From: Eledone cirrhosa
Taxonomy: Eukaryota
Reading direction: 5' to 3'
Length of the DNA: 64,000 nucleotides
NCBI GenBank assembly: GCA_964016885.1
Contig: CAXHJY010001687.1
Location: forward strand, 62,001 to 126,000
Shown: positions 12,838 to 64,000 of the stretch, one piece after another
How the letters are laid out: each line of letters starts with the position of its first letter
Position numbering within the stretch: the stretch's first letter is position 1
The notes under the pieces: generated by a model
Told to the model about the DNA's origin: nothing
The model's input: the letters and a program-made list of their open reading frames with translations, nothing else
Databases searched by the model: none
Program-made: the position numbers and the translations under genes

Positions 12838-13160
12838 GAAAGGTGAGTAATATTGTAGAACAATAAAACTATGCATATATCAGATAAGTAGCACTCAGCA
12901 GTTGGTAGAACTGGAGTATATATTAAAGAAGAAATTAAAAGATGTTTAAAGAAGTTCCATATATTTTATTATGCGCATTTCGAAAATAACATCTTCCTGG
13001 GACAAAATTGTGTTCTCATCAGATAAAATAAGGTAACATGATATGAGGCCTATATATCATGTTACACAATTTTTGTCCCAGGATGATGTTGTTTTCGAAA
13101 TGCGCAAAATAAAATATATGGAACTTCTTTAACTGTCATTTAATTTCTTCTTTTATATAT
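12838..13160. mobile_element. Fold-back fragment of a Naiad-type pLTR, related to 43871-44100
   Basis: About 12920-13012 is inverted at about 13064-13158; clearly similar to the 3' pLTR of the 45242 element. Confidence 0.8.
12964..13028 (-). ncRNA. Hammerhead ribozyme (PLE-type, palindromic stem III)
   Basis: ttttat CTGATGA ...c GAAA tgcgca TA ataaaa. Confidence 0.75.
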
Positions 13161-17163: not shown

Positions 17164-18022
17164 ATGAAAAGGCCTTTTCAAAGACCCTCATGTATAGATA
17201 AGAAATGTATAACCTGTAAAATAAGCCCCCATATTAACTGTAAAACTAGAAATGTAGTGTATAGCATAAGATGTACTGAAGGACAATGTAGAGACAAAAA
17301 TATAGTGTACATAGGTGAGACAGCTCGTAGTGTAGGGGAACGGATAAATGAACACTGGCGAGACCTTCAAGATAATAAAGAATCATCTGTACTCTACCAA
17401 CATGCTAAGATAGAACAGAAGGGTAAATTAGAGAAAATAAAAATAGAATCTACACACAGAAAAGATGCAATGTTTAGACAAATTACAGAGGCAATAAACA
17501 TAAAAGAATTACAACCAAAATTAAATAGAAAATATGAGTGGAACAGCAACATCACAACTTACAATTAAGGACAAAATGAAAACACACACACATAGAACAA
17601 ACAACCAACCAATAACATGTAAATAAATAAATAAATAAACAAATAGATAAATGAACATAAACACACACAGACACCCGGATGTGGCGCATGCGCAAACTGA
17701 GCACACAACACACACACAGAAACAAAATGGCATAGGACAGAACAAAGGAGAGGCACAGAAACAAAGAAAGGAATCCCCAGTCACTGAAGAGGTCACAGAG
17801 TGTGTGACGAAAGGACTATGACTATATATAAACAACTATCTGGTTGTGGAACCAACCAACCAACCAGAAATTTATAAATTTATAAATATATAATAAATTG
17901 AAGTGAAAGCAACTGGTGTGTGTGTTTCTTATTGGCAACATGACCCTCCCAAAGTATAACAATATCGGTTTCAACACACGATTTCAGATAAAGAATCTTG
18001 CTAAACAAATTCAGAAACGAAA
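17164..18022 (+). mobile_element. PLE 3' fragment (Cys linker, GIY-YIG, pLTR); same family as 26220-30451
   Basis: ORF 17164-17568 CITC..NVVYSIRC..VYIGET.RS..ER..EH..RQITEA; 3' UTR nearly identical to 30060-30451. Confidence 0.9.
17779..17823 (+). ncRNA. Minimal hammerhead ribozyme
   Basis: agtca CTGAAGA g gtcac-agagtgt-gtgac GAAA ggac TA tgact. Confidence 0.75.
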
Positions 18023-18029
18023 TATATAT

Positions 18030-20828
18030 ACTCTTTTACTCTTTTACTCTTTTACCTGTTTCAGCCATCCGGCTGAGGCCATGCTGGGGCACCGCCCTTG
18101 TTCCTACACATTTTATCTCCAGCCTGTATAGGTTGGCCACTGGTGTAGGAGGGAGTTTGTTGCTGCTGCCCTTAGGTTTCCCTCGTGTCTTGCTGTGGGC
18201 TCATCCGGGATCCACCTCCACGTCATGCAAGTCTCTCAGATGCCTCGGCAGCCTGTTGAAGAGTTGAGGGCCCTTGAATCCCAGTCTATTGCAATACCTG
18301 CTCCTTATTCTAGATGTGGAAGACGGGACCTTTGGCACCACACAGTGACGTCCTGTTCGACGGTTGGTCCAGCTCCCAATGCCAAAGTTTGGTGCTAGTC
18401 CCTCCAGGATTTTCCACATGTAGATCACTGCGTATCTCTCCCGTCTTCGCTCCAAGGAGTAGAGGTTCAGTTCCTTTAGCCTCTCCCAGTAGCTTGTCTC
18501 CCTCATCTTGGCAATCCTCTTGGTGTAGCTTGGCTGGATTGCCTCAAGCTCCGTGGTTAGTTTGACACTATGAGGTGACCACAACTGGGAGCAGTAGTCC
18601 AGGCGGCTTAGGACAAAAGTCCTCCACAGTGTCAACATGGTGTCTCGATCTCTTGTCCGGAAAGTCCTCAAGATCCAGCCAGCGAGTCGTCTGCATGTTG
18701 TCGCCACTTTCATGATGTGTGAAGAAAAAGATGCATCATCGCTCATGTCTATGCCCAGGTCTCGTATCGATTTTGACACGGGGATATCGGTCCCTCCTGG
18801 TCCTGTGTAGCTGTGTTCCACTATATTTGTGTTTGCAGGTTTGTATTGTAGGGCTTGGAATTTGCCAGCATTAAACTGCATGTTGTTTTCTTCCGCCCAT
18901 CTGTATATGGCATCCACATCCTGCTGTAAAAGGGCAGCGTCAGCCGGGTTTTTGATTGCCTGTGCTACCTTAGTGTCATCAGCATAGCTAGTGAGGGATG
19001 TTGTTGCATGCACCACAGAGGGCATGTCCGAGAGAGCCACCAAAAACAGTAGTGGTCCCAGGACTGTCCCCTGGGGCACTTGTTATCGGTGTTTCCCTCG
19101 AGAGGGCCCCATTTGCTGCGACTGCCTGGCTTCTGTCCCTTAGGAAGCCATGCAGCCACTCACCTACTTTTCCAGTTATGCCGAGTCCGTGTAGTTTGTG
19201 ACATATCATTCCGTGGTCGACCTTGTCAAAGGCCTTCGCAAAGTCAAGATATATCACGTCCACATGTGAGCTGTCTAGTAGTTGTCTCAGTACCCAGTCG
19301 TAGTGATGTAGCAGCTGTGTAAGGCAGCTTCTTCCTGGGCGGAAGCCATGTTGCGTGCTAGTCAGGCAGTCATTTTCTTCGAGGAAAGTGATTAGTTTCT
19401 TTCTGACGACTCGCTTCATGACCTTACTGATATGCGATGTCAGGGAGACTGGCCTATAGTTCTTGGCCAGCTCTACTACCTCCTTTATGGATAGGGCATA
19501 TTATGCCTTCTTTCAGCTCCCTGGGTAGTACACCGCTAGCCAAGGAGCTTCTGAAGAGCATCTTCAGTGGAGTTGCTAAGGCCCGCTTACATATTTTTAG
19601 GAGAACTGCTGGGAATCCATCAGGTCCAGCAGCCGAGTCTGTTCTAATTTCATCAATGGCGTACACCACATCCTCCTCCGTTATGTCTATGTGGTTGATG
19701 GTTGCCATTTCTTGATGTAGTGTTGTGGCATCAAAGAACTCCTCTGGCTTCGTTATTTGCATGTGCCTCAGTGGACATGTGAAGACACTTTTGTACTGTT
19801 CGTTCAGTATTTCATATATCTCTTGGGGATTTTCGGTTAATGAACCGTCCGTGTGGAAGAGTGGCCCAATCTTGCAGTGTACTGAGGCAGTTTCTTTTGC
19901 AAATTTAAAGAAGGCCTTAGGGTTTGTTTTAATGTTTTCTATGGCCCTGTTCTCTTTCTTTGCCCTCTCATTCTCATGTGAAAGTTTGAGTGCAATCTCG
20001 GTGTCAAGTAGTGCACGTTTCAAATAGGATTCCTTCTTGTTTTTGTTTTGTTGACTATTCAACTGGTTTGAGAGTTTAGTTCTACGTCTCATAAGGATTT
20101 TCCTATCTCTGGGAATAAGATTTTTGTGTCTGTTTGCCTCTTTCTCCGGGACACACTTTTTGCATATGGTGTGTATCGTTGTCATGATGTGTTGAAATTG
20201 TGTGTTAGTGTCTTGTGTGGCGGTGTTTTCACTCCATGTTTGCTTCCGGATTTCACTCTTAATCTTTTTCCAGTTAGCCTTGTAGAAGTTAAGGTTGGAT
20301 AGCGTCCCGGAGCTTCTTGGTGGTTTTGTCTCTGTTGGTTCTCTTGGACCACATATCATTAGCTCTACTAAGTTATGATCCGAGTGAATTGTTGGTGTCA
20401 CCTTTACATTGTGGATGAGCACTTCGTTGTTTGTAAAACAGAGGTCCAGGACATTTTCGCCTCTTGTTGGGAGGAGTATTGCTTGCTCCATGAACAGCCT
20501 GTGTGTGAGGGCCAGCAGGGATTCCGTCTGTCTCTGTTCTATTGATGTCATTCCAGGGAGGAGGTGGCCCTCAGGCCATTTGACCTTTGGTAGGTTGAAG
20601 TCTCCCAGCAGTAGGATGTTGAGACCCTGGTCCAGTTTGTCAAGGACCTCTTCTATCCTACTTAGGCTATCCTCAAATTTACCCTCATGACTGGGGGTAT
20701 CGGGCGGCTGATATGTGACACATATTACTGTCTGTAGTTGCTTCATATGTATTATCAGTGTGTCACAGACTGAGTTTGAATGTGTCAACAGTACAATTGG
20801 TGTGACATCTTCACGGATATACAGGGCA
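18030..20828 (-). mobile_element. 5'-truncated CR1-type LINE (APE and RT, frameshifted)
   Basis: ORFs 19454-20788 (LGDFNLP, LDLCF, SDHN), 18988-19419 (QHGFRPGRSC, YLDFAKAFDKV), 18201-19079 (PQGTVLGP, YADD, LYSLERRRER); (GTAAAAGA)n tail at 18030-18055. Confidence 0.93.
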
Positions 20829-21251: not shown

Positions 21252-21370
21252 TTTATATTTATATATTTTTATATTTATATATATATATATATATAATACA
21301 TACATACTTACATATATAAATATATATATTTAGATATATATATATATTTAGATATATATATATTTAGATA

Positions 21371-22011
21371 TACTGCTCAGAAGTGATTCCTAGAGCTGAA
21401 ATGATTGTAAATGACCTCTTTGAGTCTAAACTCTAAGCTATTTATCACTGCTCCCCCAGGTGAGCTGAATTTTGTAATCCCATATAAACGGCTGTTATTT
21501 CTAGCACTATGTGTGGGACGTTAGAGGACTGGAATAAGCCGTGTGCAAAACCTTGTGTATTTTCGCTACGCTAACCAGACCTTAGATATTTTTCTGAGGT
21601 TGAGTTATTTTATTTTTATCTGGGTACCTATTGATAAACACAGAAAAAGTTGATTAACTCACTGCTAATTAGTTAATTATTTTACTATTATACCATCCTT
21701 TGTGAAACATGTTTGAAGTTTGAAGTTCTGACCGATCTGCGGAAAAAGTTTGTATTTTGAATTTTAAACGTGTCTAGGTACCAATGCTTTTTGCCCATAT
21801 GAGTCTGTGAGTATTGATTTATTATTTTCTAGATCGTACAGGCAGACCTTATGTTGTTGAATTAAGATTTTTCACTCTAGCGATCTTATTAGTCAATTGC
21901 AACTATAACATGTAAATGTTCATCAAATATTAATTTATACTGCTCAGAAGCGATTCCTAGAGCTGAAATGATTGTAAATGACCTCTTTGAGTCTAAACTC
22001 TAAGCTATTTA
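21371..22011 (+). mobile_element. Retrozyme-like non-coding element, 567-nt unit (about 1.13 units)
   Basis: Direct repeat 21371/21938 (period 567); no ORF in the track; internal hammerhead; (TA)n both sides; second copy at 30488-31335. Confidence 0.82.
21623..21782 (+). ncRNA. Hammerhead ribozyme, U3-A8 core variant with long stems II and III
   Basis: ggtaccta TTGATAA acacag...ctttgt GAAA catgttt...aaacgtg TC taggtacc; 8-bp stem I; stem III extends about 17 bp with G-U pairs. Confidence 0.78.
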
Positions 22012-22193
22012 TTTAGATATATATATATTTATATTTATATATATATATATTATATATATATATTATATATATATTTATATATATATATATATTATATATA
22101 TATTTATATATATATATATTATATATATATATATATTATATATATATTTATATTATATATATATTTATATATATATATTTATATATATATATT

Positions 22194-22227
<34 letters not shown>

Positions 22228-22282
22228 ATATATATATATTTATATATATATATATTTATATATATTTATATATATATATATT

Positions 22283-22321
<39 letters not shown>

Positions 22322-22326
22322 ATATA

Positions 22327-23140
22327 TCATCATCATCATCATCATCGTTTAACGTCCATCTTCCACGCTTGCATGGGTTTGGACGGGAGTTTTCCCACTT
22401 GAGGCAAGATTGGTTATCCTGCTCGTATAGGACTGTCTGGCGGGTTTTCTACTGCTGGATGCCCTTCCTAACACCAACCACGTTTACAGTGTGGACTGTG
22501 TTTTTTTTTGTCGTGACACCTACACGACCTCATTTGTTTCGGACTGGATGTTGTGGTACCAACATAACTTCACATTTAAGGGGGAGGGGTATTTTGTTAG
22601 AGGTGCCTACTGACTGTTTGGTTTCGCTTTGTACTTAGGCAAGGCGGGTCTTCTGTATAACTGTGTAGCGCCAAAGTGACATTGTCTTGGAGAGGTGTAA
22701 GTGTGTGAGGTCGGAATTTATCAAGTCGTCCTAGGTTTTTCTGGGTCTGCCTACTCCGTGGCTACTGTTTATTTTTATCGCCCTGCACTTTTTTATACAG
22801 CTGTCGTCTTTCATGCGCATCACGTGACCGTACCAACGTAGTCTTCTCTCGAGTAAACAACATCTGATCCCTCTTATATATATATATATATACATCATCA
22901 TCACCACCACCACCATTTAATGTCAATTTTCTACGTTAGCATGGTTTAGACAGGTTGTCCTATTTGAGGCAAATTGAGGTCAGATGACCTTGTCTTGCTC
23001 ATACAGAAATGGTTTTGGCTTGGTTTCTATGGCTGGATGCCCTTCCTATTGCCACATTTACAGTGTGGACTGGGTGTTTTTTGTTGTGACACTTACACGA
23101 CCAAATGGACTGGATGTACTGTGGTATCAACATAACTTTA
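22327..23140 (-). mobile_element. Two short RTE 3' fragments (22327-22875 and 22893-23140)
   Basis: (CAT)n tails on the plus strand; reverse complement of the 11698 family 3' end; RRLRWYGHVMR. Confidence 0.85.
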
Positions 23141-23459
23141 CAGAGAAATATATTTATATAATAAATTATACCTAAATATATATATAACCAGTTGACTTAA
23201 GAAGCATTGAGATAATTTCCAACTTGAAATGTGTGCATTCAAACACAAATAACTAAAATAGTCAATTACATATATACAAATATATATATAATTATACCTG
23301 TATATAGTTGTTTTATAATCTAGGTTAGTTGATTGTTACTGTTGAATTATAATAACCACACACGTTACACACCCACAACACACAGTACACCTTCACCTAC
23401 TTATATACTGTACATATCAGTACACATTACCTCACACACACGCTATACACACACTATAA

Positions 23460-23790
23460 CTCACTGGGAAGAAAAACTTAACTCCTCATCTGTAACAACA
23501 ATGGAGATAAAGGTGAGCAAGGCACTACCCCTGGAGCAGATACAAACTATGCAGTGTGGAAATGCCTAAACAGACTAAGATCTGGTGTTGGACGTGCAAA
23601 AGTCACTCTTGCAAAATGGGGATATTTAAAGGATGGGGACGTTGTGGGAGACTGGCATTGAACTAGACTACACAGTACCTCCTGATATGCCCCCTGCACA
23701 GCATTGGACTAGGCAGAGTTTAATGAGAAAGGACAGCAATGTGTTTAGCTGTGGCAGAACCACATCTAGCCAAGCTTTGTAACCGACACT
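23460..23790 (+). mobile_element. Degraded 3' fragment of another non-LTR element (Vingi/Ingi-like C-terminus)
   Basis: Reads LNRLRSGVGRAKVTLAKWGY...YLLICP, a C-terminal zinc-knuckle region; frameshifted. Confidence 0.55.
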
Positions 23791-23962
23791 CTTGTAGACA
23801 CAAGAACTACAACCACACATACACCTTCCTATACAGTGTATGTATATCACTAGACACTCACCACAGCCACTACACCAACCTTTACAGTGTATATATCATT
23901 ATACACTCACCACCACCACTACAACCTATACAGTGTATATATATCACTATCCAGGGTATATT

Positions 23963-26001
23963 ACATAGAGACCAAGAGGGAAGCTAGGCGACAAGTATAC
24001 TTAGCTAGGAGGGAAGCAGAGGATAGAAAATTATAGAGGGACCAGCAGTACAAGTCAGCAGCAGCGTAGTAAGTAAGGCAATCAAAGATATGAAGATGGG
24101 GAAGGCAACCGGTCCATCGAGTATAGCTGCCGAGATGCTGAAGGCATCTGGGTCTGTAGGTCACACTATAACCACACGTATCGTTAACCAGGTAATACTA
24201 GAAGGGGCCATACCAAAAGATTGGTGCAGTAGCATCATTGTCAACTGCTACAAAGGCAAAGGCGATGCACTAGATAGAGGAAACTATAGAGGTATAAAGT
24301 TGATGGACCAGGTCATGAAAGTAACAGAAAGAGTTATAGCACAGCTGATTAGGGACTGGGTGAATATAGACGAGATGCAATTTGGGTTTGTACCAGAAAG
24401 AAGCACCACTGATGCCCTCTTCCTTGTGAGGCAATTACAGGAAAAGTACCTAGCTAAAAGTAAGCCACTCTACTTGGCATTTGTCGACCTTGAGAAAGCC
24501 TTTGACAGAGTTCCACGTGCTGTAATCTGGTGGGCTCTTAGAAAACTAGGAGTAGATTAATGGCTTGTGAAAGCGGTACAAGCCATGTATAGGGGAGCAG
24601 TCAGCAAAGTTAGGATTAGCAATGAGTATAGCGAGGAATTTAGCGTACAGGTTGGGGTCCACCAGGGCTCTGTTCTTAGCCCTCTCCTGTTCATTATAGT
24701 CCTGCAGGCAATAACGGAGGAGTTTAAGACCGGATACCCTTGGGAACTCCTGTATGCTGATGACCTCGCACTCATAGCTGAATCTATGGTAGAACTAGAG
24801 AATAAATTCCAAACCTGGAAGCAGGGACTAGAGAGAAAGGGTCTCAAAGTCAACATGACCAAGACTAAGGTCCTTGTAAGTAGACGAGAAAACAGAACCC
24901 AGATCCCCTCAGGGAAATGGCCTTGCTCAGTATGTAGGAAAGGTGTAGGTAGGAACTCCATTCTCTGCCCCAAATGCAAACAATGGGTACACAAGAGATG
25001 TAGTGGGATCTCAGGAAGCTTAATTAAGAATGTAGGATTCACATGCAGCAGCTGTGCTGAAACAGCAAGCAGTAAACAGCCACAGGAAACAAGTACCACC
25101 AATCTCTGGGAGGGCCCTGTAGAAACAGTAGACAGCTTCTGCTACCTAGGTGACCGAATTAGCAACGGAGGTGGGTGTTCAGAAAGTTCAATAACTAGGG
25201 TAAGGACGGGATGGAAGAAGTTTAGGGAACTACTACCACTGCTAGCTGCAAAAGGCTTCTCCCTCAGAATGAAAGGCAGACTGTATGATGCGTGTATCCG
25301 AACAGCGATGTTGCATGGTAGTGAGACCTGGGCGCTGAAGGTGGAAGACTTACGTAGATTAGAGAGAAACGAAGCCTGCATGCTCCGATGGATGTGTAAC
25401 AGTAATATACGTGAACGACAAAGCATAAATGAATTGAGAGAGAGACTGAGCATAAGAGGAAACAAATGCTGTGTGCAGGAGAGGCGGTTGCGCTGGTATG
25501 GACATGTGATGCGTATGAAGGATGACAGCTGCATAAAAAGGTGCAGAGCACTAGAAGTTGATGGAAACCGCGGAGTGGGGAGACCCAAGATGACCTGGGA
25601 TGAGGTGATAAAAGCCGACCTTACCCAATTACACCTCTCAAAGACAATGACACACGACCGTGACTTCTGGCGTCACGCAGTAATACAGAGTACCCGACCT
25701 CCCATGGGTACATGCTGAAGCATATAAACAATATGCCCCCACACCCCCCACCGCAAGGTGGTCGTGGAGGTGCCATGGCAAAAAAGCACCCAGCCCACAC
25801 TGTAAAGTGGACGTGTAGGCGCCACGAAAAAGCACCCAGCACTCACTGTAAATGAGGTTGGTGTTAGGAAGGGCATCCAGCTGTAGAAATCAAGCCAGAT
25901 CAGTTCCTGTATGAGCAAGGCATGGTCAGCCGACCAGACACTGCACACAACAGGACAACCCGTCTAACCCATGCTAGCGTGGAAGAACGGACGTAAAACG
26001 G

Positions 26002-26032
<31 letters not shown>
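23963..26032 (+). mobile_element. 5'-truncated RTE LINE; complete RT with one nonsense codon
   Basis: ORFs 24090-24560 and 24567-25718 in one frame, split by TAA; LYADD; (GAT)n tail to 26032. Confidence 0.95.
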
Positions 26033-26219
26033 CCAACAACCACTACACCAACCTATACACAACTACTACACCTACCTATAAACCACAACTACTACACCAA
26101 CCTATACACAACAACCACTACACCTACCTTTACACCACAACCACTTAATACACCTACCTATACAATATACATATATATCACTATACTTTATATATATATA
26201 TATATTTATGGTCCTGTGT

Positions 26220-29200
26220 ATATAAACAACTATCTGGTTGTGGAACCAACCAACCAACCAGAAATTTATAAATTTATAAATTTATTATAATAAATTGAAG
26301 TGAAAGCAACTGGTGCGTGTGTTTATTATTGGCAACATGACCCTCCCAAAGTATAACAATATCGGTTTCAACACTCGATTTCAGATAAAGAATCTTGCTA
26401 AACAAATTCAGAAACGAAATATCGTAAGCCTTAGCCAGGCTAACAAGATACTGAAAACCACCACCATGTTCTGTTGTCTACGAAAAACCATAACATCTCG
26501 ACAACTATCCTTCATAAAGCAGTGTGCCTCTTCCAGAATCTACACCAACACCATCAATACCGACGTTAGAAGATTACAACTCACCAAAAAACAAGCAGAT
26601 AGGCTAAAACGAACATTAATTCTAAACATAAAAAAGAAGATCTATAGAGAATTAAGTCATCAAGAAAAACAAAAGCGTAACCTAATACAAGAAATAGCTA
26701 GAATCACCACACCAAGAGAGAAACTAATATTTATAAGCCTTATACGCCCTGAAGAACAATACATTACTCAAGAATGTGATAAGCACTTTAACAGGAAACT
26801 AAAGTGGCTTAAACAGGCAAAGCTAAATCAGGATACTATAGAGTATACCAATAGATATCCCGACAAAATTGACGGTATCAACATGGCCGACACCTCATTA
26901 TCAGAAGAGTTCAACAACAAAAACACCAACATATATGGGAACACACAAAAATAGATAATGATGAAATGTCTGTGTTATGTTTGCCGCCGAAATTTGCGAC
27001 ATTCAAGAAGGTAAATATGATTAGTTGTCTGTCAGAAATAGAAAAATCATTTACAAAACTACGCTGGAGCCTCAAAAACAAAAACAAAAGCAACAATATA
27101 CGCACACACATATACAACACACATCCCAACAACAACAGATACACAGACACAAACAACAATAACAACAACACACACACCAACAACAACAACAACAACAATA
27201 ACAACATACCCAGAAACAACAACAAGACACGCAGACACAAACAACAATAACAACAACACACACACCAACAACAACAACAACAATAACAACATACCCAGAA
27301 ACAACAACAAGACACACAGACACAAACAACAATAACAACACACACAACAATAACACACACGGAGACAACAACAACACACATCAACAACAGCACACATCAA
27401 CAACAACAACACACACACATTCAATGCCTCTCACCACCACCACAATCTTAACAAACACACAGACACAGAAAACAAGTAATGACAGTAGCACAGAAATCAT
27501 AGAAATAAGGGAAAGTAATAGGATTAAAAAGAGAAGGGAGACTAAGGACAAAGAGAATAACCAAGACGAACACACAGACACACAAAATAGGGTAGATAAC
27601 AACAATGAGCCAGTGGAAAGAGACAGGAGTAATTGTGAGAGACATAGAAACAACCATGAGGCTGTTGGTGGAAATAGAAATAGAAACAACACAACTAACA
27701 ATAACAATAGCACTAGTACACATAAAGCAGCAGCCTGGAACTCTACGTTTTATAATCCCTCCGATAAATCATTCGACCTGCGACGAGTCCACGCCACGAC
27801 TTTACCATTTAACAAACGCACGCAATTGCCGTCGCAGGTCGATGAACAAACAGAAGCACAATTTAGTATAACTAGATCCGAACTTAGAAATATTATAGAA
27901 CAGTATAGCAAGAAGCATAATAGAATGGAGGCCCAGCAACTGGGAGAAAAATCTGCAAATGGCTTGCGTAAGCTCATGCAGCGCTCACGTAATGGAGAGA
28001 TAGCATGCTTTCCAACAGACAAGTCTGGCAGAATGTCGGCTGACAGCCTGCCAAACTACATCAGGCAATGCAACCCCACATCACTAACACAAGAGAGGTA
28101 ACACCACAGGAGCATGAGGATAGAGAAAAAGCCCTCAATGCCCATATGGTGATGTGGACGAATATAATGCAGCCCAACAAAAGGACTGCCAACAACTTCC
28201 AGGCCTGGAACAATGACGTGCCGGCGTTGTATGGGCTTCGAAAAGACCATAAAACGGGCTGTGACCCTGTCGCGGGACCACCAACACGGCCAGTCTGTGG
28301 AGCTAACATTGCTAGTAACTACAGACTGTCCTACTTCCTCTCCCTGATCATACGCCCCATCATTGAAATGTCCCCAGATGTATGTGACAGCACGGAGAAC
28401 CTCCTCAGCAGAATCGGCGTGAGTAACCGATCTGCATAATAGGCAGTATGGATGTTGTGTCCCTGTATCCATCTATTGGCGTGGATTTTGCTGTGGAGAA
28501 ATGCGTAGAAATGATCAGTGAGAGCAAGGTTGAGTTCCGTGGTATTGATACCAGTGAGCTGGGACTCCTACTTAAGATTATCTATAGTAATAATTACCTA
28601 GACACATATGACCTTAGCAATCTGTGCCCTACAAGACCAGCAAGAGGCAGACCACCTACCATTACCTCAATGGCCAAGAAAACCCATACAGATAGATGGA
28701 ACGGGTGGGCCAGAGCCATATGGACACCCGAAAACCACGATGAACTGAAGAAAATGATTGCACATGCGGTAGGGGCCAGCATAAAACTAACCCTTAAGGA
28801 ACATATGTTCAAATTTAATGGAAAAACATATGCCCAAGAGGAAGGAGCAGCCATTGGTGTTAGCATTGCAGGCGACATAGCTAACTTATTCATGGTATGG
28901 TGGGACAGTAGACTTAAACTTAAACTTAAAGAACAATTAGAAGACAGCTTAACCCTGATAATGTACTCCCGCTACGTAGATGATATAAACATCGTAGTTA
29001 AGACACCCCCACTAGAGAACAGTCAGGAACTAGAGAAAAACACAATGGAAAGCATCCAGCAAATAGCAAACTCCATCCACCAGAGCATTAGAGTTACTAT
29101 AGACTACCCAAGTAAACACCCCAACCATCGATTACCTGTACTAGACACAGAGCTCTGGTTAGATACCATTAACAACAAAAAACAAATCCTCCATTCCCAT

Positions 29201-30451
29201 TATGCCAAACCCATGACTTCCAAACATCTGATCCACCGAAACTCGGCCGTTTCGGACCATACCAAAATCAACATACTGATTGCGGATTTGGTACGGGTGA
29301 TGAGAAATGTGTCCCGCATGTGCAACCCCGAAGAACTAGAGAGACACATACAACACTTCATCCACCGTATGCAGTTCTCTGGCTACAATCAGAGAGATAA
29401 AATCAGAGTGTATAGAGGAGCCAGAACCAAATGGGAAAAAATGGTAAATAATGACATAAATGGGACCTGCCCCTTGTATAGGAGCAAATTTTGGAATAGA
29501 ATAGAAAGAACTAGGAACAAGGCTAATAGAATAAACTCATGGTATGATAGCAATAAATACCAGAGTGTAATGTTCATCGATACAACCCCTAGAGGTGAAT
29601 TAGCTTACAAATTTAGAAGGGCCCTAAATAAACATAAACTCAATATTAAGATAGTAGAAAGACCAGGTACCTCCGTAAAAACATTTATTAGCAAGACATA
29701 CCCGTAAAATAAGCCCCCATATTAACTGTAAAACTAGAAATGTAGTGTATAGCATAAGATGTACTGAAGGACAATGTAGAGACAAAAATATAGTGTACAT
29801 AGGTGAGACAGCTCGTAGTGTAGGGGAACGGATAAATGAACACTGGCGAGACCTTCAAGATAATAAAGAATCATCTGTACTCTACCAACATGCTAAGATA
29901 GAACACAAGGGTAAATTAGAGAACATAGAAATAAAAATAGAATCTACACACAGAAAAGACGCAATGTTTAGACAAATTACAGAGGCAATAAACATAAAAG
30001 AATTATAACCAAAATTAAATAGAAAATATGAGTGGAACAGCAACATCACAACTTACAATTAAGGACAAAATGAAAACACACACACACATAGAACAAACAA
30101 CCAACCAGTAGCATATAAATAAACAAATAGATAAATGAACATAAACACACACAGACACCCGGATGTGGCGCATGCGCAGACTGAGCACACAACACACACA
30201 CAGAAACAAAATGGCGTAGGATAGAACAAAGGAGAGGCACAGAAACAAAGAAAGGAATCCCCAGTCACTGAAGAGGTCACAGAGTGTGTGACGAAAGAAC
30301 TATGACTATATATAAACAACTATCTGGTTGTGGAACCAACCAACCAACCAGAAATTTATAAATTTATAAATTTATTATAATAAATTGAAGTGAAAGCAAC
30401 TGGTGCGTGTGTTTCTTATTGGCAACATGACCCTCCCAAAGTATAACAATA
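26220..30451 (+). mobile_element. Near full-length Penelope-like element (RT and GIY-YIG), disrupted, with direct pLTR repeat
   Basis: ORF pieces 26313-26954, 26966-27250 (LPPKFA), 27424-28101 (TDKSG), 28068-28439 (LYGLRKDHK..RPV), 28448-29707 (DVVSLYPSI, RYVDD, LPVLD), 29745-30008 (VYIGET). 26220-26362 repeats at 30310-30451, starting about 8 nt after the ribozyme cleavage site. AAC-rich expansion at 27075-27430. Confidence 0.93.
30263..30307 (+). ncRNA. Minimal hammerhead ribozyme in the 3' pLTR
   Basis: agtca CTGAAGA g gtcac..gtgac GAAA gaac TA tgact. Confidence 0.78.
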
Positions 30452-30487
30452 TTTATATATATATTTTTATATATATATATATATATT

Positions 30488-31335
30488 TAAATTAATATTT
30501 GATGAACATTTACATGTTATAGTTGCAATTGACTAATAAGATCGCTAGAGTGAAAAATCTTAATTCAACAACATAAGGTCTGCCTGTACGATCTAGAAAA
30601 TAATAAATCAATACTCACAGACTCATATGGGAAAAAAGCGATCTTATTAGTCAATTGCAACTATAACATGTAAATGTTCATCAAATATTAATTTATATTG
30701 CTCAGAAGCGATTCCTAGAGCTGAAATGATTGTAAATGACCTCTCTGAGTCTAAACTCTAAGCTATTTATCACTGCTCCCCAAGGTGAGCTGAATTTTGT
30801 AATCCCATACAAACGGCTGTTATTTCTAGCACTATGTGTGGGACGTTAGAGGACTGGAATAAGCCGTGTGCAAAACCTCGTGTATTTTCGCTACGCTAAC
30901 CAGACCTTAGATATTTTTCTGAGGTTGAGTTATTTTATTTTTATCTGGGTACCTATTGATAAACACAGAAAAAGTTGATTAACTCACTGCTAATTAGTTA
31001 ATTATTTTACTATTATACCATCCTTTGTGAAACATGTTTGAAGTTTGAAGTTCTGACCGATCTGCGGAAAAAGTTTGTATTTTGAATTTTAAACGTGTCT
31101 AGGTACCAATGCTTTTTGCCCATATGAGTCTGTGAGTATTGATTTATTATTTTCTAGATCGTACAGGCAGACCTTATGTTGTTGAATTAAGATTTTTCAC
31201 TCTAGCGATCTTATTAGTCAATTGCAACTATAACATGTAAATGTTCATCAAATATTAATTTATACTGCTCAGAAGCGATTCCTAGAGCTGAAATGATTGT
31301 AAATGACCTCTCTGAGTCTAAACTCTAAGCTATTT
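30488..31335 (+). mobile_element. Retrozyme-like 567-nt element, second copy (about 1.23 units plus inverted 5' segment)
   Basis: Period 567 (30696/31263); same 3' end (CTCTAAGCTATTTAT) as the 21371 copy; 30488-30637 is the reverse complement of about 31111-31260. Confidence 0.82.
30948..31107 (+). ncRNA. Hammerhead ribozyme, U3-A8 variant (copy of 21623-21782)
   Basis: Same motif as 21623-21782. Confidence 0.78.
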
Positions 31336-31416
31336 ATATATATTTATATTTATATATATATATATTTATATATATATATATTTATATATATATTTATATA
31401 TTTATATATATATATT

Positions 31417-31554: not shown

Positions 31555-31992
31555 CGATATTAAATAAATGGAAACTATATTTATAAAACCATATTTATTT
31601 CATTATATATATTTCAGGGATATCATATTAAAAATATGGTATGCCTTCATCAGACAAAATACAATATAAACAGTCTTATAAATAGATAGATTTGACATAC
31701 CTTACACTTCAACTTCCATTTAAAAAGTTGATTTTAAGTGTAAGTTGAAGTGTAAGGTATGTCAAATCTATCTATTTATAAGACTGTTTATATTGTATTT
31801 TGTCTGATGAAGGCATACCATATTTTTAATATGATATCCCTGAAATATATATAATGAAATAAATATGGTTTTATAAATATAGTTTCCATTTATTTAATAT
31901 CGTAAATATACTCCAAATACTTGTTGAGTGCTTTTATATCAGTTATAAATATTTACTCGTTGTAACCCAACAATTTAAATAAAACTTTGCAT
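31555..31992. mobile_element. Fold-back Naiad-type pLTR with hammerheads on both arms (31598-31659 minus, 31798-31859 plus)
   Basis: About 160-bp inverted arms; ttttgt CTGATGA agg...ccct GAAA tatata TA atgaaa. Confidence 0.85.
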
Positions 31993-32067: not shown

Positions 32068-34503
<2,436 letters not shown>

Positions 34504-34895: not shown

Positions 34896-35565
34896 ATGTA
34901 TTTTGCAATACACTTTATGCTTAATTAAAAGCATTTTGAAGACCGTAAGCTATTGTTTTAAAGTAGTAACAAATTCACTTACTTTGATCTCAGCAAACAG
35001 GGGAGATAAGCCGACAAGTCTTGTTTCGCTTTGGTTGAAGCTTATCAAGGCCAACTACCCCTCCAGTCTACCGAGATCACTGATGTTATATTCTTAGTTT
35101 GCTGAGATCAAAGTAAGTGAATTTGTCACTACATTAAAACAATAGCTTACGGTCTTCAAAATGCTTTTAATTAAGCATAAAGTGTATTGCAAAATACATT
35201 ATATATACATCTATATATATATTGCTATTTCAGATCTCCAATTCTAATTTTTAATTTCTGCCTGACCAACAACCGCTCTGCATAATCAGCTCCTGGTTAT
35301 TTACTAGATTTCTATAAGAATATAACATCAGTGATCTCGGTAGACAGGAGGGGTAGTTGGCCTTGATAAGCTTCAACCAAAGCGAAACAAGACTTGTCGG
35401 CTTATCTCCCCTGTTTGTTGAGATCAAAGTAAGTGAATTTGTCACTACTTTAAAACAATAGCTTACGGTCTTCAAAATGCTTTTAATTAAGCATAAAGTG
35501 TATTGCAAAATACATTATATATACATCCATATATATATTGCTATTTCAGAGCTCCAATTCTAATA
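34891..35565 (+). mobile_element. Retrozyme-like non-coding element, 316-nt unit (about 1.5 units plus inverted 5' segment)
   Basis: Direct repeat 35097/35413 (period 316); 34891-35095 is the reverse complement of about 35316-35520; (TA)n both sides. Confidence 0.85.
35360..35401 (+). ncRNA. Hammerhead ribozyme, U3-A8 variant (inverted copy at 35010-35051)
   Basis: gcc TTGATAA gctt-caacca-aagc GAAA caag-a-cttg TC ggc. Confidence 0.8.
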
Positions 35566-38212: not shown

Positions 38213-38217
38213 AAGAT

Positions 38218-42776: not shown

Positions 42777-43004
42777 TATATATATATATTTATATATATA
42801 TTTATATATATATATATATATATATTTACATATATATATATAGAGAATTAGCCGTCGAAACGGCTTGAACTCAGCTGTCGGAGTCTTACTGGTTCCCATT
42901 ACCCACTCTATTACCTCAAGTATTGAGTACTTTGGTGCGTTATGGTCCACCTGGTTCCTTACCACATTTCCTCCGTTATTTATATATATTTATATATATA
43001 TATT

Positions 43005-43873: not shown

Positions 43874-43993
43874 GTAGGAGGTGAGTATTACAATAAAGCA
43901 ATGCAGATATCGGATAAGAAGCACTCTACAGTTTGTAGGACTGGAGTATACATAATATATAAGATCAAAAGATGGTTAAAGGAGTTCCATGTA

Positions 43994-44060
43994 TTTTATT
44001 ATGCGCATTTCAAAAACAAACATCATCATGCAATAATATTTGTGTTTTCATCAGATAAAA
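43994..44060 (-). ncRNA. Hammerhead ribozyme in the Naiad 3' pLTR
   Basis: ttttat CTGATGA aaaca...tgttttt GAAA tgcgca TA ataaaa. Confidence 0.78.
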
Positions 44061-45241: not shown

Positions 45242-47704
45242 TTAGCTGTATACTTTGTGAAAAGTCCTATGGAATTTATGCAGGCAGATAGAAAACAAAT
45301 CTGTACGTCTATTTATTATAGAATCTAGATTAGAGATAATGGTAAATTTTTCATTTAGGCAGAGATTACAGATTTTAGATAGAGAGCTGTTCAAGTATGA
45401 GGACGCAGAAGAAACCTTCTTCCAAAAGATGGTATATTTAATGTTTTTGTCTTTCAAGGACCATATGAGTTCTGAAAGAGCCGTGTTGGTTCTTTTAAGT
45501 TTGTATTTAAAAGATGAATGGTGATTATAGAGACGAGCTTTAAAAGAGGTGGAAGTGGAGCCAAAATAGGTGAAGGAATTGGTGCTAGTTATAACTTTAC
45601 ATTCATAAATTAAGTTTTTATCAAGACAATGGTTGTTGAGAGGACATTTATTTTTAATGCGGCAGTTGCAATTAGAGAGATTATTAATGAGTGACCTAGT
45701 GTTATCTATAGAAGGAATTGGATTGGAGAAGTTGTTTGCGATAGGAATAATAGGAATAATAGTTTCTTGATTTAGAGTTGGATTATGAACATTTAGCGAA
45801 GTTGTGTTTGACGTTGTATTTGGGTTTACAGAAGTTAGCCTAGGGTTTACAATGACGTCGGGAGTACTATTACTGTTATTATGAAATTCAATGTTGGAAG
45901 GAAGAGATTTAGTATTTAGTATTTTATTGTTGTGTTTAGAGATGATGTTGGAAATATTGGAGGATGTAGAATAAGAAAATTTGATGGTGTGTTTGTTAAA
46001 TATTTTACTATAGATATGTGAGGGAGGGAAGCATTTATTTAAGGCACTAAAAAATAATTTAGGAATATTGTTACTAATAGAGATGGAGAAAGGAGCATTA
46101 TACCAGATTATGTTTTTGTATCTAGGTCTTTTATTAAAGTTATTGGAATGATCATGATTAATTATTCTACTGTAAGTTTTTCTAGAATTTGTTTCTTTAC
46201 TATATTTGATTTTATCTGGATAACCGGCTTTAGAAAGTGCGTTATTATAGTAATTGGCGTTAGCATCAAAGATGTTTTTATTAGAAGATATGTTGGATAT
46301 TCTTTTTCCAATATTACTAACTATAGCATTCTTGATATTGGTAGGATGGTTAGATTTAAAGTTAACATAATTTAGGTTCTCATTGTTTTTATGGTAAGGG
46401 TAATATAGGCCAGTGTCAAGATTAAGAGATACATCCAAGAAATTAGCTAGTTTGATACTATTATCAAATTCAATTTTTAGGTTATGTTGGTTAAAGAGAT
46501 TACGTATATTGTTCTTAATAATATTAAGGTTAACTATATTGCAATTTAAGATAGTAAAGAGTCCATCGTCACGATAAATTCCACCGCGAAGTTGAGGAAT
46601 TTTCCGACTCAAAGATTTCAAAATAAAGATACCAATTAAATCAGTCAATTGGGATGAATCGGATGCTCCCATTGTGATGTCGAAGTTGTTAGAGGTATCG
46701 GCTCTGGTCCAATATTCGTTGTTGAACTCTAGGATGGTTTTACGTGCGGTGAGGATGATGTGAAGTTCATCTGTGGTGATGTCAGAATATTTAAGTGCGA
46801 AAGATAGAGCATTATTGAGAAGTGAAGGCGAAATGGAGGAATAGTAGCTGGCAATATCAAATTGAATAAATTTTAGTTTGTTTTTATTATCCAATTTGTT
46901 GAACCAGCCAATCACTTCAGAAGTACCAAACCATAAATTTAGGTTCAAAGAAGAGCAATTAGAACTAACCTGTGGGATAATTCTATTCAAGATGGCTTTA
47001 CTAACAACCCCCAGATCAGATTTAGAGGGGGCGATTAATCTAACAGGAAGTTCAGTGCGAAAATTGTTTTTGTGATCCTTGAGATTTATCCTCGGAGTTC
47101 TTGGGAGGAATGGTTCGGTCTTTTTTTCAATGCCAAGTTTTGACATAATCTCAGAGGCTTCAAGGTTTATGTATTCTAAATTTTCATGGTTGGTTTTACG
47201 ATACTTTTTCCTAAGTTCCTTTAGGATAAGGTTGTTATAATTATCCTTGGAAATACCATATAAGTTATTGGTTTTGTCAGAGTGGACTAAAACATTTTTT
47301 GAGGAATTTAGGTTAGAAATTGTGTTCTTGAGATTTACAAGGTGCTCTTGTCCTTTGTAAGGGTATCTCTTGAATTTAAGATTTTTTATTATTTTAGTTA
47401 ATTCTTCCTCGAATTGTACTAGATTTTTGTTGGAAGGAGGATTTCGTCTAGAATTAAATAGATGATCGAGGAAGTTATGTTCTTTGGTACGGAAGTTCCC
47501 TTTTAGGCGCTGGTCATAGAAATAGGCTGTCCATCTAAGTCTTCTTACGAAGGAGTCAGTTTTTTCAATAAGAAGTTTGGTGAATTCAGATTTACCAGGT
47601 ATAGGAATGTCTTTAGTTGAATTGGTTATGTTGTAATAATCCATGTTGTAGAAAAATAGGTAAAAGACCATCAAAAGGTATCCAATATGAGAGTAAGCGC
47701 TCAA
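45242..47704 (-). CDS. PLE polyprotein, RT plus C-terminal GIY-YIG (Naiad-type); probable ATG at 47644
   Basis: STKDIPIP..RRLRW, SDKT, LKDHK..RLI.PSKSD, FDIASYYSSI, FDITMG, IYRDDG, NFLDV, CNC..CPL..CL, IYEC..YFGST, CNLCLNEK, CLH; no internal stops. Confidence 0.93.
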   Translation of the reverse strand: MSAYSHIGYLLMVFYLFFYNMDYYNITNSTKDIPIPGKSEFTKLLIEKTDSFVRRLRWTAYFYDQRLKGNFRTKEHNFLDHLFNSRRNPPSNKNLVQFEEELTKIIKNLKFKRYPYKGQEHLVNLKNTISNLNSSKNVLVHSDKTNNLYGISKDNYNNLILKELRKKYRKTNHENLEYINLEASEIMSKLGIEKKTEPFLPRTPRINLKDHKNNFRTELPVRLIAPSKSDLGVVSKAILNRIIPQVSSNCSSLNLNLWFGTSEVIGWFNKLDNKNKLKFIQFDIASYYSSISPSLLNNALSFALKYSDITTDELHIILTARKTILEFNNEYWTRADTSNNFDITMGASDSSQLTDLIGIFILKSLSRKIPQLRGGIYRDDGLFTILNCNIVNLNIIKNNIRNLFNQHNLKIEFDNSIKLANFLDVSLNLDTGLYYPYHKNNENLNYVNFKSNHPTNIKNAIVSNIGKRISNISSNKNIFDANANYYNNALSKAGYPDKIKYSKETNSRKTYSRIINHDHSNNFNKRPRYKNIIWYNAPFSISISNNIPKLFFSALNKCFPPSHIYSKIFNKHTIKFSYSTSSNISNIISKHNNKILNTKSLPSNIEFHNNSNSTPDVIVNPRLTSVNPNTTSNTTSLNVHNPTLNQETIIPIIPIANNFSNPIPSIDNTRSLINNLSNCNCRIKNKCPLNNHCLDKNLIYECKVITSTNSFTYFGSTSTSFKARLYNHHSSFKYKLKRTNTALSELIWSLKDKNIKYTIFWKKVSSASSYLNSSLSKICNLCLNEKFTIISNLDSIINRRTDLFSICLHKFHRTFHKVYS

Positions 47705-47799
47705 CCGTTAAGGAGCTTACAAATACGAATAATTATAGGGGGGGAAGGGGGATTAAAATTATTAGTGGTAAATAGTAAATATAGGTTTCAAGGAACATA

Positions 47800-53536: not shown

Positions 53537-53601
53537 ATATATAGTATTAATTGTACTATTAACTGCTCCTTATTGTTGAGCTGACATATAATATTACCAA
53601 T

Positions 53602-56046
53602 ATGCTAATCAAAGACCAACTCCCCATGTCAACCAAGAAAATACCAATACCATCCAGGAATACATATGAGAAATTGATGATCAACAGTGTAAATTCATTT
53701 ATCAATAGAGTGAGATGGAGGGCATTCCATTATGATAGAAACAGATCTAACAACGTGAATAATACTAACCAATTTGACTCCTTCGGTTTTAAAACCTTTA
53801 AAAGCCCCCCTCATAACACACTACTTAACTCCTTTGAAAATGACCTAGTTAAACTAGTTAAGAACATTAAATACAATAAGCACCATATTAGAAGCAACAC
53901 CTTCTTAAACAAACTTAACACCTCTATTAATGGATTCAAAACTAGTAATAAAATTATTGTACACGCAGATAAAACTAATAACATATACAGCCTAGATTAT
54001 AATACTTATAGAAAATTTATATATAATGAACTACATAAAAGCTACAAAAAGACCACCTTGAAAAACTTAGAAGATATTAATATAGAGGGATATAATATAG
54101 TGTCTAAACTAGGACTTCAGAGACTTACACAACCATTCACCCCAAACCCCCCTAGATTCTCTCTGAAGGACCATAAGGAGGACTTCATCAGCAACCCCTC
54201 GATAAGACTTATCTGCCCTTCCAAGTCCGACATTGGTAGTATCAGCAAGAAAATCTTGGATAAAATCATCCCACAAATTAAACACAAGATACACCTTAAA
54301 CAATGGGGAAATACGGGTGAAGTGATTGAATGGTTCAAAGATATCAAGAATAATAAGGACAAAAAATGTATTCAATTTGATATCAATTCATACTACACCT
54401 CTATTTCCCCTATCCTATTAAATAAGGCACTTATCATGGCCATGAACAATAGCGACCTGACTAGAGCCCAGATTGATGTCATCCTTGGGGCCCGTAAAAC
54501 CATAATCACCTTCGAAGACCAACTATGGACACGCAAGGATACGCACAACAACTTCGATATAACCATGGGATCTAGTGACTCGGCGCAAGTCACTGATTTG
54601 GTCGGCCTATACCTTCTCAATGAAATCCATAAGGACCTCCCTTACCTCAACGGTGGTGCACTTCTACTTATAGAATATAAAAAATTTAATATAGAACGAG
54701 CTAGAAAACAATTGCATAAGACATTCAAAAACTTTAACCTTAGTATCACCATGGACAAAAACACTAAAAATGTAAACTTCCTAGACGCCACACTATACCT
54801 AGACTCAAAAATATATACACCTTTCCATAAGCCTAACGAAAAACTCATTTACGTAGATACTAAGTCTAATCACCCTAGATCAATATTAAACTCTATCTCT
54901 AAGGGGGTATCCAATAGAATCTCTAGCCTGTCCTATGACGCAAACATATTTAGCAAAAACTCACAATATTACAATCAAGCATTAGCTAGATCCGGCCATA
55001 ATATAGAAATTGAGTTCCTACCTAAGAAAACACATAGCTACAACATCATCTCGCACAACATGTCCATGAGGAAACCTAATAATAGGAATAGCAACCACAA
55101 GTACACCAAAGCGGAGGGTGCCACCGGAAGTAACCATTACCACGCAAACTACTGTGGTGCCGTAGGAAGCAACAACACACCAAACACTAAAAGCAAAAAT
55201 AGAAGAAGAAATAATACTTTTTTCAACCCTCCTTTCAACCTAAATGTCTCCACCAACATACCTAGGGCTTTCTTCTCACTACTAGATAAAAACTTCCCTC
55301 TAGGACACAAGTACCACAACCTTTTAAACAAAAACACTATTAAAATCTCATACTCTACGACGCCTAACTTAGCATACCACATAGCTAGCAGTAATAAAAA
55401 TAAAATTAATTCTTACTTCCAACAAACGAAATCACAACAGGATCCAAACCTTCTAAATACCACTGTAGCAAGCAACCATAGTAACGGCAGTAACAATAGA
55501 AATAACACTAGTATAAGAAATAACACTGGGGTTGACAACCAGAATGTCCAAAATCCTATAGCTACCACCCAGACTTCTGCACTGCATTATAACCTGCAAA
55601 CTAACACACAGGATAATTGCAACTGTAGAGCTAATAGAACCTGCCCTTTGGATAAAAAATGCCTAACCAAGGATATCATATACTCATGCACCGTCACAAC
55701 TAGCAACTCTTCAGAAACCTATGTAGGCTTCACTTCTAACAGCTTCAAAATCAGATATAATTCGCACATCCACTCGTTCAAAAAGCACAGCCTAGCTAGC
55801 TCCACCTCACTATCTAGCTACATACACTATCTAAAAACTAAAAATAAACCATACACACTCAAATGGGAAGTGATAGGCAGCGCGACTTCGTACAAACCAC
55901 CTAATAAATTTTGTAACCTCTGTATACTAGAGACCCACAATATTATCTTCTCCAACTGTAACCTACTTAACAAAAAATCTGAGGTGTTTGCAACTTGCCA
56001 GCACCGCTTCAGACATTCCTTCCAAAACTTTAAGCCCAATATATAG
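53602..56046 (+). CDS. PLE polyprotein, RT plus GIY-YIG (Naiad-type), lacking the catalytic YxDD motif
   Basis: Colinear with the 45242 ORF (STKKIPIP, ADKT, LKDHK, FDINSYYTSI, FDITMG, NFLDA, CNC..CPL..CL, YVGFT, CNLC) but reads LNGG-ALLL where the other reads LRGGIYRDDGLF. Confidence 0.9.
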   Translation: MLIKDQLPMSTKKIPIPSRNTYEKLMINSVNSFINRVRWRAFHYDRNRSNNVNNTNQFDSFGFKTFKSPPHNTLLNSFENDLVKLVKNIKYNKHHIRSNTFLNKLNTSINGFKTSNKIIVHADKTNNIYSLDYNTYRKFIYNELHKSYKKTTLKNLEDINIEGYNIVSKLGLQRLTQPFTPNPPRFSLKDHKEDFISNPSIRLICPSKSDIGSISKKILDKIIPQIKHKIHLKQWGNTGEVIEWFKDIKNNKDKKCIQFDINSYYTSISPILLNKALIMAMNNSDLTRAQIDVILGARKTIITFEDQLWTRKDTHNNFDITMGSSDSAQVTDLVGLYLLNEIHKDLPYLNGGALLLIEYKKFNIERARKQLHKTFKNFNLSITMDKNTKNVNFLDATLYLDSKIYTPFHKPNEKLIYVDTKSNHPRSILNSISKGVSNRISSLSYDANIFSKNSQYYNQALARSGHNIEIEFLPKKTHSYNIISHNMSMRKPNNRNSNHKYTKAEGATGSNHYHANYCGAVGSNNTPNTKSKNRRRNNTFFNPPFNLNVSTNIPRAFFSLLDKNFPLGHKYHNLLNKNTIKISYSTTPNLAYHIASSNKNKINSYFQQTKSQQDPNLLNTTVASNHSNGSNNRNNTSIRNNTGVDNQNVQNPIATTQTSALHYNLQTNTQDNCNCRANRTCPLDKKCLTKDIIYSCTVTTSNSSETYVGFTSNSFKIRYNSHIHSFKKHSLASSTSLSSYIHYLKTKNKPYTLKWEVIGSATSYKPPNKFCNLCILETHNIIFSNCNLLNKKSEVFATCQHRFRHSFQNFKPNI

Positions 56047-62211: not shown

Positions 62212-63769
<1,558 letters not shown>

Positions 63770-63810
63770 TTGGCTCCTTCGGTTGAGCACTCTACTGACT
63801 TATATTCATC

Positions 63811-64000
63811 ATGCAGAAACAACATCTGAATATTTCTACAAAGAACATACCCGTACCAAGCAGGAAAACATACCTAAAACTCCTGATACAGAAAACAGAC
63901 GCGTTCATTAAAAGGTTGCGTTGGCGTGCCTTTTATTTCGATAATCCGCGAAAAGCAGACAACAAACGGGATAAATTTGGATTTAAAACTTATAATGACC
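63811..64000 (+). CDS. N-terminus of a third Naiad-type PLE ORF (runs off the window)
   Basis: MQKQHLNISTKNIPVPSRKTYLKLLIQKTDAFIKRLRWRAFYFD..FGFKT matches the N-termini of the 45242 and 53602 ORFs. Confidence 0.88.
   Translation, partial: MQKQHLNISTKNIPVPSRKTYLKLLIQKTDAFIKRLRWRAFYFDNPRKADNKRDKFGFKTYND

Follow-up and report, generated by a model that had tools for sequence, protein, structure and literature searches.

Introduction

The reverse transcriptases (RTs) of Penelope-like elements (PLEs) are the closest relatives of telomerase RT. Two groups of described elements resemble the one reported here; what we say of these and other published systems refers to the accessible portions of the cited sources. 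Hydra-clade PLEs (Craig et al. 2021, PMC8557442) insert into (TA)n as partial tandem copies, with a 5' inverted copy, a tail, and a hammerhead ribozyme near the 3' end. Metazoan retrozymes of the type without long terminal repeats (non-LTR; PMC7229834; bioRxiv 10.64898/2026.07.22.740005) are non-coding, carry a type I hammerhead and occur as more-than-unit copies. Here we describe a 567-nt non-coding unit, present twice in a 64,000-nt stretch of DNA from Eledone cirrhosa (contig CAXHJY010001687.1, positions 62,001 to 126,000; hereafter the window), which shares these features and for which, as for the retrozymes, a PLE is proposed as helper. The family very probably derives from a Hydra-clade PLE as a non-autonomous, retrozyme-like element, and a small bulged hairpin probably sets the start of its reverse transcription.

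The family differs from Hydra-clade PLEs (PMC8557442) in having no open reading frame (ORF), in a tail of 75 nt against their 30-40, and in its hammerhead, which is of the U3-A8 type with 160 nt and a 19-bp stem III. Its length lies within the 51-972 bp range of the retrozyme preprint (bioRxiv 10.64898/2026.07.22.740005), in whose terms the copies are 'monomers' with one hammerhead each; unlike those retrozymes it has a long helix III. A further comparison is offered by Poseidon PAc (Frangieh et al. 2024, PMC11167929), the only PLE for which the choice of internal start sites is known: two internal initiation sites define the tail in vitro, the target is AT-rich, RNA 3' of the start is required, and the hammerhead is protein-assisted and dispensable. 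Two putative start sites and an AT-rich target are found here as well; the difference is that in the 567-nt family and in Hydra elements the ends precede, by 4-6 nt, a conserved bulged hairpin situated upstream of the ORF and common to the clade and its ORF-less passengers.

Partial tandems, the tail, inversion, (TA)n targeting, internal initiation and U3-A8 cores are already published for PLEs. The features flagged in the initial annotation of this locus are thus mostly known PLE biology, and the part worth pursuing is the conserved hairpin next to the ends. We found no published account of it in a search that did not extend to most subscription journals, Repbase and several supplements; term searches of the PMC8557442 main text and of the preprint (bioRxiv 10.64898/2026.07.22.740005), as far as these were available, returned no mention of it. 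The helper of animal retrozymes has so far been argued from co-occurrence and from similarity of pseudo-LTRs (pLTRs), and the accessible retrozyme literature (PMC7229834; bioRxiv 10.64898/2026.07.22.740005) names no cis signal for a helper RT.

Results and discussion

Two fixed ends, each followed by a hairpin

The repeats of the window were compared by blastn. The two copies of the 567-nt unit (Table 1) both lie within (TA)n tracts and are 98.9% identical, with seven differences over 642 nt and none in the ribozyme. As the initial annotation had noted, they exceed one unit, by terminal repeats of 75 and 134 nt, and have a common 3' end: both leave the unit after CTCTAAGCTATTTAT, 238 nt beyond C21774, where about 237 nt past the GUC had been given. 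The 5' ends, which had been called variable, do differ between the copies, but not simply so, as the 5' boundary of copy 1 (placed within 21369-21373 owing to a TATA microhomology, or unit positions 21936-21940) coincides with the outer end of the inversion in copy 2. The family therefore has two preferred end sites 75 nt apart, B (21937) and A (22012), and the interval between them corresponds to a PLE 'tail'. The annotation was right in what it observed, while the second fixed end and the derivation from a PLE had escaped it.

One of the two copies, copy 2, starts with a 5' inverted, truncated copy, joined to the direct part through a 3-nt microhomology (AGC). Copy 1 is flanked by a probable target-site duplication, marked by AG positions in the flanking TA tracts; the sole AG of the right tract is at 22015, and three of the four AGs on the left adjoin the junction. 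Its length is ambiguous (5-12 bp) because the left flank is itself periodic.

Past site A or B, wherever the unit continues, GCTC begins 4 nt on and pairs with a following GAGC. Hairpin 1, after site B, is repeated at 21375-21396, 30700-30721 and 31267-31288, with pair probabilities of 0.94-0.96; hairpin 2, which follows the internal copy of site A (21445) at a distance of 4 nt, is repeated at 30775-30790, with pair probabilities of 0.97-0.98. Both also fold in a circular form of the unit. A variant at 30715 (C>T; depth 1579 of 3801 in run X1, 15 of 45 reads in run X7) turns the A.C of hairpin 1 into A-U, mending its one upper-stem mismatch. The presence of two hairpins would explain the 75-nt tail. 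Since each of the two fixed ends is followed, 4 nt on, by a conserved bulged hairpin, and since initiation at two sites is described for Poseidon (PMC11167929), the sequence-specific RT initiation proposed earlier gains support.

Table 1. Positions of the 567-nt family and of Hydra-clade PLEs in the window.
Feature	Position	Strand	Details
Copy 1	21371..22012	+	642 nt: 567-nt unit followed by a 75-nt repeat of its start
Probable target-site duplication of copy 1	21361..21372 with 22010-22021	+	5-12 bp; AG positions in flanking TA tracts
Type I hammerhead, U3-A8 core	21623..21782	+	160 nt; predicted cleavage after C21774
Tail	21938..22012	+	75 nt, between site B (21937) and site A (22012)
Hairpin 1	21942..21963	+	GCTC, upper stem with A.C mismatch, TA bulge, GAGC; 4 nt after site B
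Hairpin 2	21450..21465	+	GCTC, C-G pair, 4-nt loop, GT bulge, GAGC
Copy 2, inverted arm	30488..30639	-	reverse complement of 21786-21937; starts at site B
Copy 2, direct part	30637..31337	+	701 nt: 567 + 134, 1.24 units; hammerhead 30948-31107; then (TA)n
Hydra-clade PLE ORF with hairpin	53565..56046	+	hairpin 53565-53581; ORF start 53602; RW, DKT, CxCX5C, CxxC, CxH
Second Hydra-clade PLE ORF	45242..47716	-	ORF 45242-47644; hairpin 47716-47699 upstream; Hydra marks
Third Hydra-clade PLE	62392..64000	+	inverted arm 62392-62908; hairpin 63773-63788; ORF start 63811

The end sites are also visible in sequencing runs of organism A. Four of nine runs were examined and X1 and X7 were used; X4 and X5 were left out, with only 11 and 7 of 30 bins covered. 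In X1, two contigs terminate at site A into (AT)n, and the summed depth, which is a rough measure, drops at B (from 18495 to 5839) and at A (from 3307 to 570). Ends in the X7 restriction-site-associated (RAD-seq) reads were excluded as element ends. A joint at the reference edge in X1, considered as evidence for a circle, was rejected, being ordinary continuity of the unit.

Both window copies have T at 31110 (and 21785), where organism A nearly always has G (2481 of 2490 in X1; 185 of 190 reads in X7); either the window copies form one sub-lineage, or the window comes from a species related to organism A. Many X7 reads match no further than 30800-30832 or 31116-31153 before departing from the unit: the stretches that follow hairpin 2 and the hammerhead are common to sister families, one of which has a GCTC/GAGC hairpin of its own.

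The unit contains no long ORF in any frame, and an ORF remnant was rejected, as tblastn with four PLE proteins of the window yielded just two short matches (E 0.04-0.07). The family keeps the junction order of the clade, namely hammerhead, hairpin 1 and hairpin 2.

The hairpin in other elements

Within the window, the pattern TGCTC-N6..16-GAGCTGA occurs seven times against 0.01 expected, six times in the 567-nt family and once before a Hydra ORF, and a hairpin lies upstream of all three Hydra ORFs with a visible 5' end. A scan for element ends gave 43 rows, of which 12 were dropped (simple sequence in both copies, or noise) and the rest merged into 16 sites. Among the 14 sites outside the family, a strict GCTC/GAGC within 9 nt is found at one, the element with the Hydra ORF (null 0.2%, P 0.03). 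With the pattern relaxed post hoc, CTC/GAG is found at four (null 1.8%, P 9e-5) and YTC/GAR at five (null 5%, P 4e-4). The shared shape is a 4-bp base, an upper stem and a 2-nt bulge on the 3' side; this geometry occurs 35 times in the window against 14.1 +/- 3.8 in 60 shuffles, while bulges of 0, 1 and 3 nt occur 16, 25 and 23 times, none above the shuffle maximum, with all of these counts inflated by repeated copies.

For loci outside the window, the hairpin descriptor was fixed beforehand. A homolog search gave 55 aligned sequences, and 14 loci were retrieved from contigs of bacterial genome assemblies; one (L018, a weak match of 26% identity) was dropped before counting, leaving 13 loci (L005-L017) from six assemblies. 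These are animal-type PLEs with (TA)n flanks, presumably reflecting host contamination. Ten of the 13 loci, in four of the six assemblies, have the hairpin outside the ORF, either downstream of the hammerhead or upstream of the ORF start. The misses are L007 and L015, which have variants (GCAC/GTGC, longer loop), and L006, which ends inside its hammerhead and was scored as a miss. GCTC/GAGC matches numbered 20, against 1.45 +/- 1.4 in 100 shuffles. Under a filter that demanded T as the first bulge base, 17 of 18 cases form the first upper pair across a bulge of 2 nt, compared with one or two of 18 for other bulge sizes. When the scan was anchored at the hairpin, five of six informative copy ends lay at -4, -4, -6, -6 and -6 (four families), the sixth being a rearrangement at +15. 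In three loci (L005, L010 and L013) a pair of hairpins precedes the ORF at a spacing of 62-68 nt, comparable to the 75 nt of the 567-nt family, and as in that family C-G closes the second of them.

A script tabulated 31 distinct hairpin instances, of which two are probably misparsed. In 19 the first upper pair is C-G, in 9 it is U-A and in 3 it is unpaired, and the lower stems take four paired forms, GCTC/GAGC, ACTC/GAGT, GCAC/GTGC and GTTC/GAAC. Judged by eye in the consensus sequences of File S7 of PMC8557442, as far as available, the hairpin is perfect in three of six (twice in Hydra-1_Ajap), imperfect in one and unclear in two.

Several short, apparently ORF-less (TA)n families occur in the window (31555-31990, 32100-32250, 52973-53442, 50484-51433, 38215-39478, 12838-13143, 43874-44250 and 42843-42976). 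Most have a hammerhead and several are inverted; with their variant hairpins (ACTC/GAGT, GTTC/GAAC) they are probably further Hydra passengers. Searches of other collections were negative: a 19-mer scan of metagenome contigs gave four loci, none with the rest of the hammerhead, which were rejected as chance (longest alignment 46 nt at 83%); the same scan of viral contigs gave no match, and Hydra protein scans of viral contigs confirmed none of 17 and none of 47 candidate stretches.

The hammerhead ribozyme

The core consists of TTGATAA (21631-21637), GAAA (21704-21707) and a GUC triplet ending at 21774, that is, the paired position 3-8, the G12-A13-A14-A15.1 run and the NUH site of a type I hammerhead (UUGAUAA/GAAA/GUC). 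The 160-nt span, this core and the 8-bp stem I (21623-21630/21775-21782) agree with the initial annotation; stem III is longer than the roughly 17 bp given there, with 19 bp plus A15.1-U16.1, including six G.U pairs, and domain II takes up 66 nt. Stems I and III have pairing probabilities of 0.65-1.0 in local, full-length and circular folds. None of 2000 dinucleotide shuffles of the unit reached stems of at least 8 (I), 3 (II) and 8 (III) bp, and their best summed stems came to 16, against 31 in the real unit. In the window, a descriptor allowing any paired 3-8 core matched only the two family copies at strict settings, and Rfam gave no match at the gathering score and six chance matches at E<=10, with no hammerhead model among them.

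It is true, as had been pointed out, that CUGANGA searches miss this ribozyme; yet U3-A8 cores have been known in PLEs since 2014, with about 1,300 matches in Schistosoma, where Cercyon PLEs carry them, and a large helix III is known from PLE ribozymes of fungi and protists (Cervera and de la Pena, PMC4209133). The present hammerhead resembles the former in its core and the latter in its helix III. Their U3-A8 cores, by contrast, are among the minimal motifs, and the accessible part of that paper shows no animal example in which a U3-A8 core is combined with a helix III of 19 bp and a domain II of 66 nt.

Six of the 40 variant rows listed (of 68, from X1 and X7) fall inside the ribozyme, three in stems, three in loops and none in the core, where fewer than one was expected. 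Two of the three stem variants keep pairing, A-U to G.U at 30951 and G.U to A-U at 31040, each one-sided. A diverged sister sequence in X7 keeps the GUC and the stem I strand and differs in the stem III arm. This pattern is compatible with selection.

As predicted from its sequence, the hammerhead is as apt to cleave as to be inactive. That it is a relic, dead or dispensable, which is genuine by descent but has ceased to cleave, is a serious possibility that falls somewhat short of even. Relative to the minimum, the active fold costs 5 kcal/mol at 37°C and 5.7 kcal/mol at 20°C, and the catalytic stem II is disfavoured by a register that, slipped by one base, pairs and so buries G12. Likewise, eight of nine Xenopus retrozymes failed to cleave in vitro (bioRxiv 10.64898/2026.07.22.740005), and Poseidon insertion was unaffected by ribozyme mutants (PMC11167929). 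A relic is harder to reconcile with the intact core, cleavage triplet and stems I and III, with the stem variants that still pair, with the sister sequence and, more weakly, with the variant-free core.

Other hammerheads of the window vary in similar respects. Another U3-A8 family, compact and likewise with a TTGATAA core (35363-35398, +; 35048-35013, -), forms a direct-plus-inverted insertion at 34898-35560, at whose ends the bulged hairpin was not found. A hammerhead-like fold with a U4C core (CCGAAGA) lies at 57491-57529 (+), 1.4 kb past the Hydra ORF 53602-56046 and about 45 nt before the element end, and by eye there is another near 42135 (+). C3-G8 hammerheads with a much enlarged domain II are found at 51292-51363 (51 nt) and 39173-39287 (about 95 nt), so that ribozyme expansion recurs among families of the window.

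The template of the copies

Copy 2 presupposes a template of at least 794 nt and traverses one uncleaved hammerhead, and a more-than-unit template is therefore required. To this extent the circular or multimeric RNA proposed earlier stands; the data fit an uncleaved multimer and a circle alike, and a circular template seems doubtful to us. The inverted arm of copy 2 does stop near the cleavage site, as had been noted, at 11 nt with one mismatch or 19 nt on an exact match in place of about 12; the stop could mean that the RT reached a 5' end made by cleavage, or that it stalled at stem I. The suggested tie between inversion end and cleavage site seems doubtful, as it rests on this single event and six of the nine other inverted arms in the window hold a whole hammerhead by the full descriptor (seven by a loose core pattern).

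A classic non-LTR retrozyme would also yield such copies: tandem masters elsewhere would give rise, by hammerhead cleavage and ligation, to 567-nt circles, which would then undergo rolling-circle reverse transcription. We consider this unlikely, though it has points in its favour. It would account for copies longer than one unit and for the traversed hammerhead; with its long stem III the ribozyme could act as a monomer, as in the fungal type (PMC4209133); a model is available (PMC7229834); and stems I and III, like the hairpins, fold in the circle too. The copies, however, have a single hammerhead each, neither of the two in the window being a tandem array with two or more, and unprocessed RNA is the main substrate in the Poseidon system (PMC11167929). 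The retrozyme reading is compatible with a start set by the hairpin, the two differing in the template alone.

A model for hairpin-positioned copying

The overall explanation that we favour, and consider likely, is an ORF-less Hydra PLE derivative with hairpin-positioned copying. A more-than-unit RNA, either an uncleaved tandem transcript or a circle, would be bound in trans at its hairpins by a Hydra RT/GIY-YIG protein, whose endonuclease would nick (TA)n. The nicked strand would pair with the A/U-rich bases 5' of hairpin 2 and prime cDNA at site A, giving the fixed 3' end. The other target strand may prime at site B before hairpin 1, giving the inverted arm of copy 2, or joining at site B may take place without inversion, as in copy 1; the distance from A to B would be the tail. 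The hammerhead would be mostly off, with G12 buried, so that the RT could read through, and cleavage, which would release the RNA from longer transcripts, would probably be slow or occur only with help from the protein. More broadly, the bulged stem-loop may be a clade-wide recruitment and ruler signal of Hydra-clade RTs, with cDNA starting 4-6 nt upstream, two hairpins and two target strands giving tail and inversion, and ORF-less hammerhead RNAs spreading by keeping the signal; for this wider proposal the case is evenly poised.

Several observations weigh against this explanation. Comparison of the unit with the autonomous PLEs of the window by blastn showed no nucleotide similarity beyond the hairpin, and there is no ORF remnant either, so that neither points to a particular helper family. 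At nine of the 14 other window ends not even the most relaxed hairpin pattern occurs within 9 nt, among them the Hydra-looking fragments at 33152 and 62040. Five of the 13 outside loci come from a single assembly, three of these being one family, and a microsatellite-anchored end scan of the outside loci, which is nearly blind, found the hairpin in one of three rows. The start of copy 1 at B could stem from deletion of a palindrome of the copy 2 type, in which case it is no independent evidence. As to the ribozyme, stem II has only three contiguous base pairs (3 bp, a C.U mismatch, 2 bp), with a probability near zero for the catalytic register; the third stem variant, at 31087, breaks a G.U pair, and the variant rows listed hold no double-sided compensatory change in the stems. 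The full copies available for comparison numbered two. The ribozyme is moreover atypical for the Hydra clade, because all 26 Hydra hammerhead rows in the accessible part of File S2 of PMC8557442 are C3-G8 with a stem III of 3-4.

Alternatively, the hairpin might be a promoter, translation or endonuclease-recognition element, with the ends set by A/U-rich microhomology to (TA)n. All ends do carry 3-6 nt of AT microhomology, the hairpin can lie close upstream of an ORF (22 nt at 63773-63788), and in D. virilis recognition of DNA by the endonuclease depended on the tail (cited in PMC11167929). We nevertheless think this improbable: the hairpin is kept twice in the ORF-less 567-nt element and in other ORF-less families, its offset holds at 3-6 nt despite differing flanks, and the unit holds further AT-rich runs that neither copy uses as ends. 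The one-sided 2-nt bulge and the freely varying upper stem also fit an RNA structure and not a DNA palindrome.

Neighbouring elements and the choice of helper

The DNA of the window is animal-like and crowded with retroelements. The element at 53565..56046 is a candidate for the kind of helper on which the 567-nt family would depend. Its ORF is open over 814 codons, with about six residues apparently missing at the position of the catalytic YRDD motif seen in the 45242-47644 ORF. Both near-full ORFs (starts 53602, +, and 47644, -) bear the Hydra marks described in PMC8557442, and the third aligns with their N-terminus; in this third element the inverted arm stops 3 nt before the hairpin.

The sequences at 26219-30452, 17165-18030 and 58868-60389 belong to a PLE which, from its motifs, we take to be of the Neptune type; its hammerhead is minimal, and its two end sites are separated by about 55 nt. 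Mobilisation by the adjacent one (26219-30452), or by a long interspersed element (LINE) of the kinds we presume from motifs to be represented by RTE-like and CR1-like ORFs in the window, is disfavoured and very improbable: although copy 2 begins 35 nt past the short end of the Neptune-type element, there is no shared sequence, none of the three Neptune-type ends in the window has the hairpin, the common (TA)n tract indicates the same target only, and the family itself carries neither a poly(A) nor a simple-repeat tail. A Neptune-type fragment is nested in the arms of another element, within a 3.9-kb near-perfect palindrome (57697-61570; inner arms of 1314 nt, 97%).

Significance

The ribozyme extends the known range of animal PLE hammerheads, which alone would be a modest finding. 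The hairpin offers more: small, covarying and at a fixed distance from the ends, it permits a direct mutational test of start-site choice and of helper identity, gives a structural explanation of the tail and the inversion, and provides a search handle for ORF-less passengers of the clade. If its proposed role is true, the hairpin would serve as a portable cis element through which any RNA could be inserted at (TA)n by target priming.

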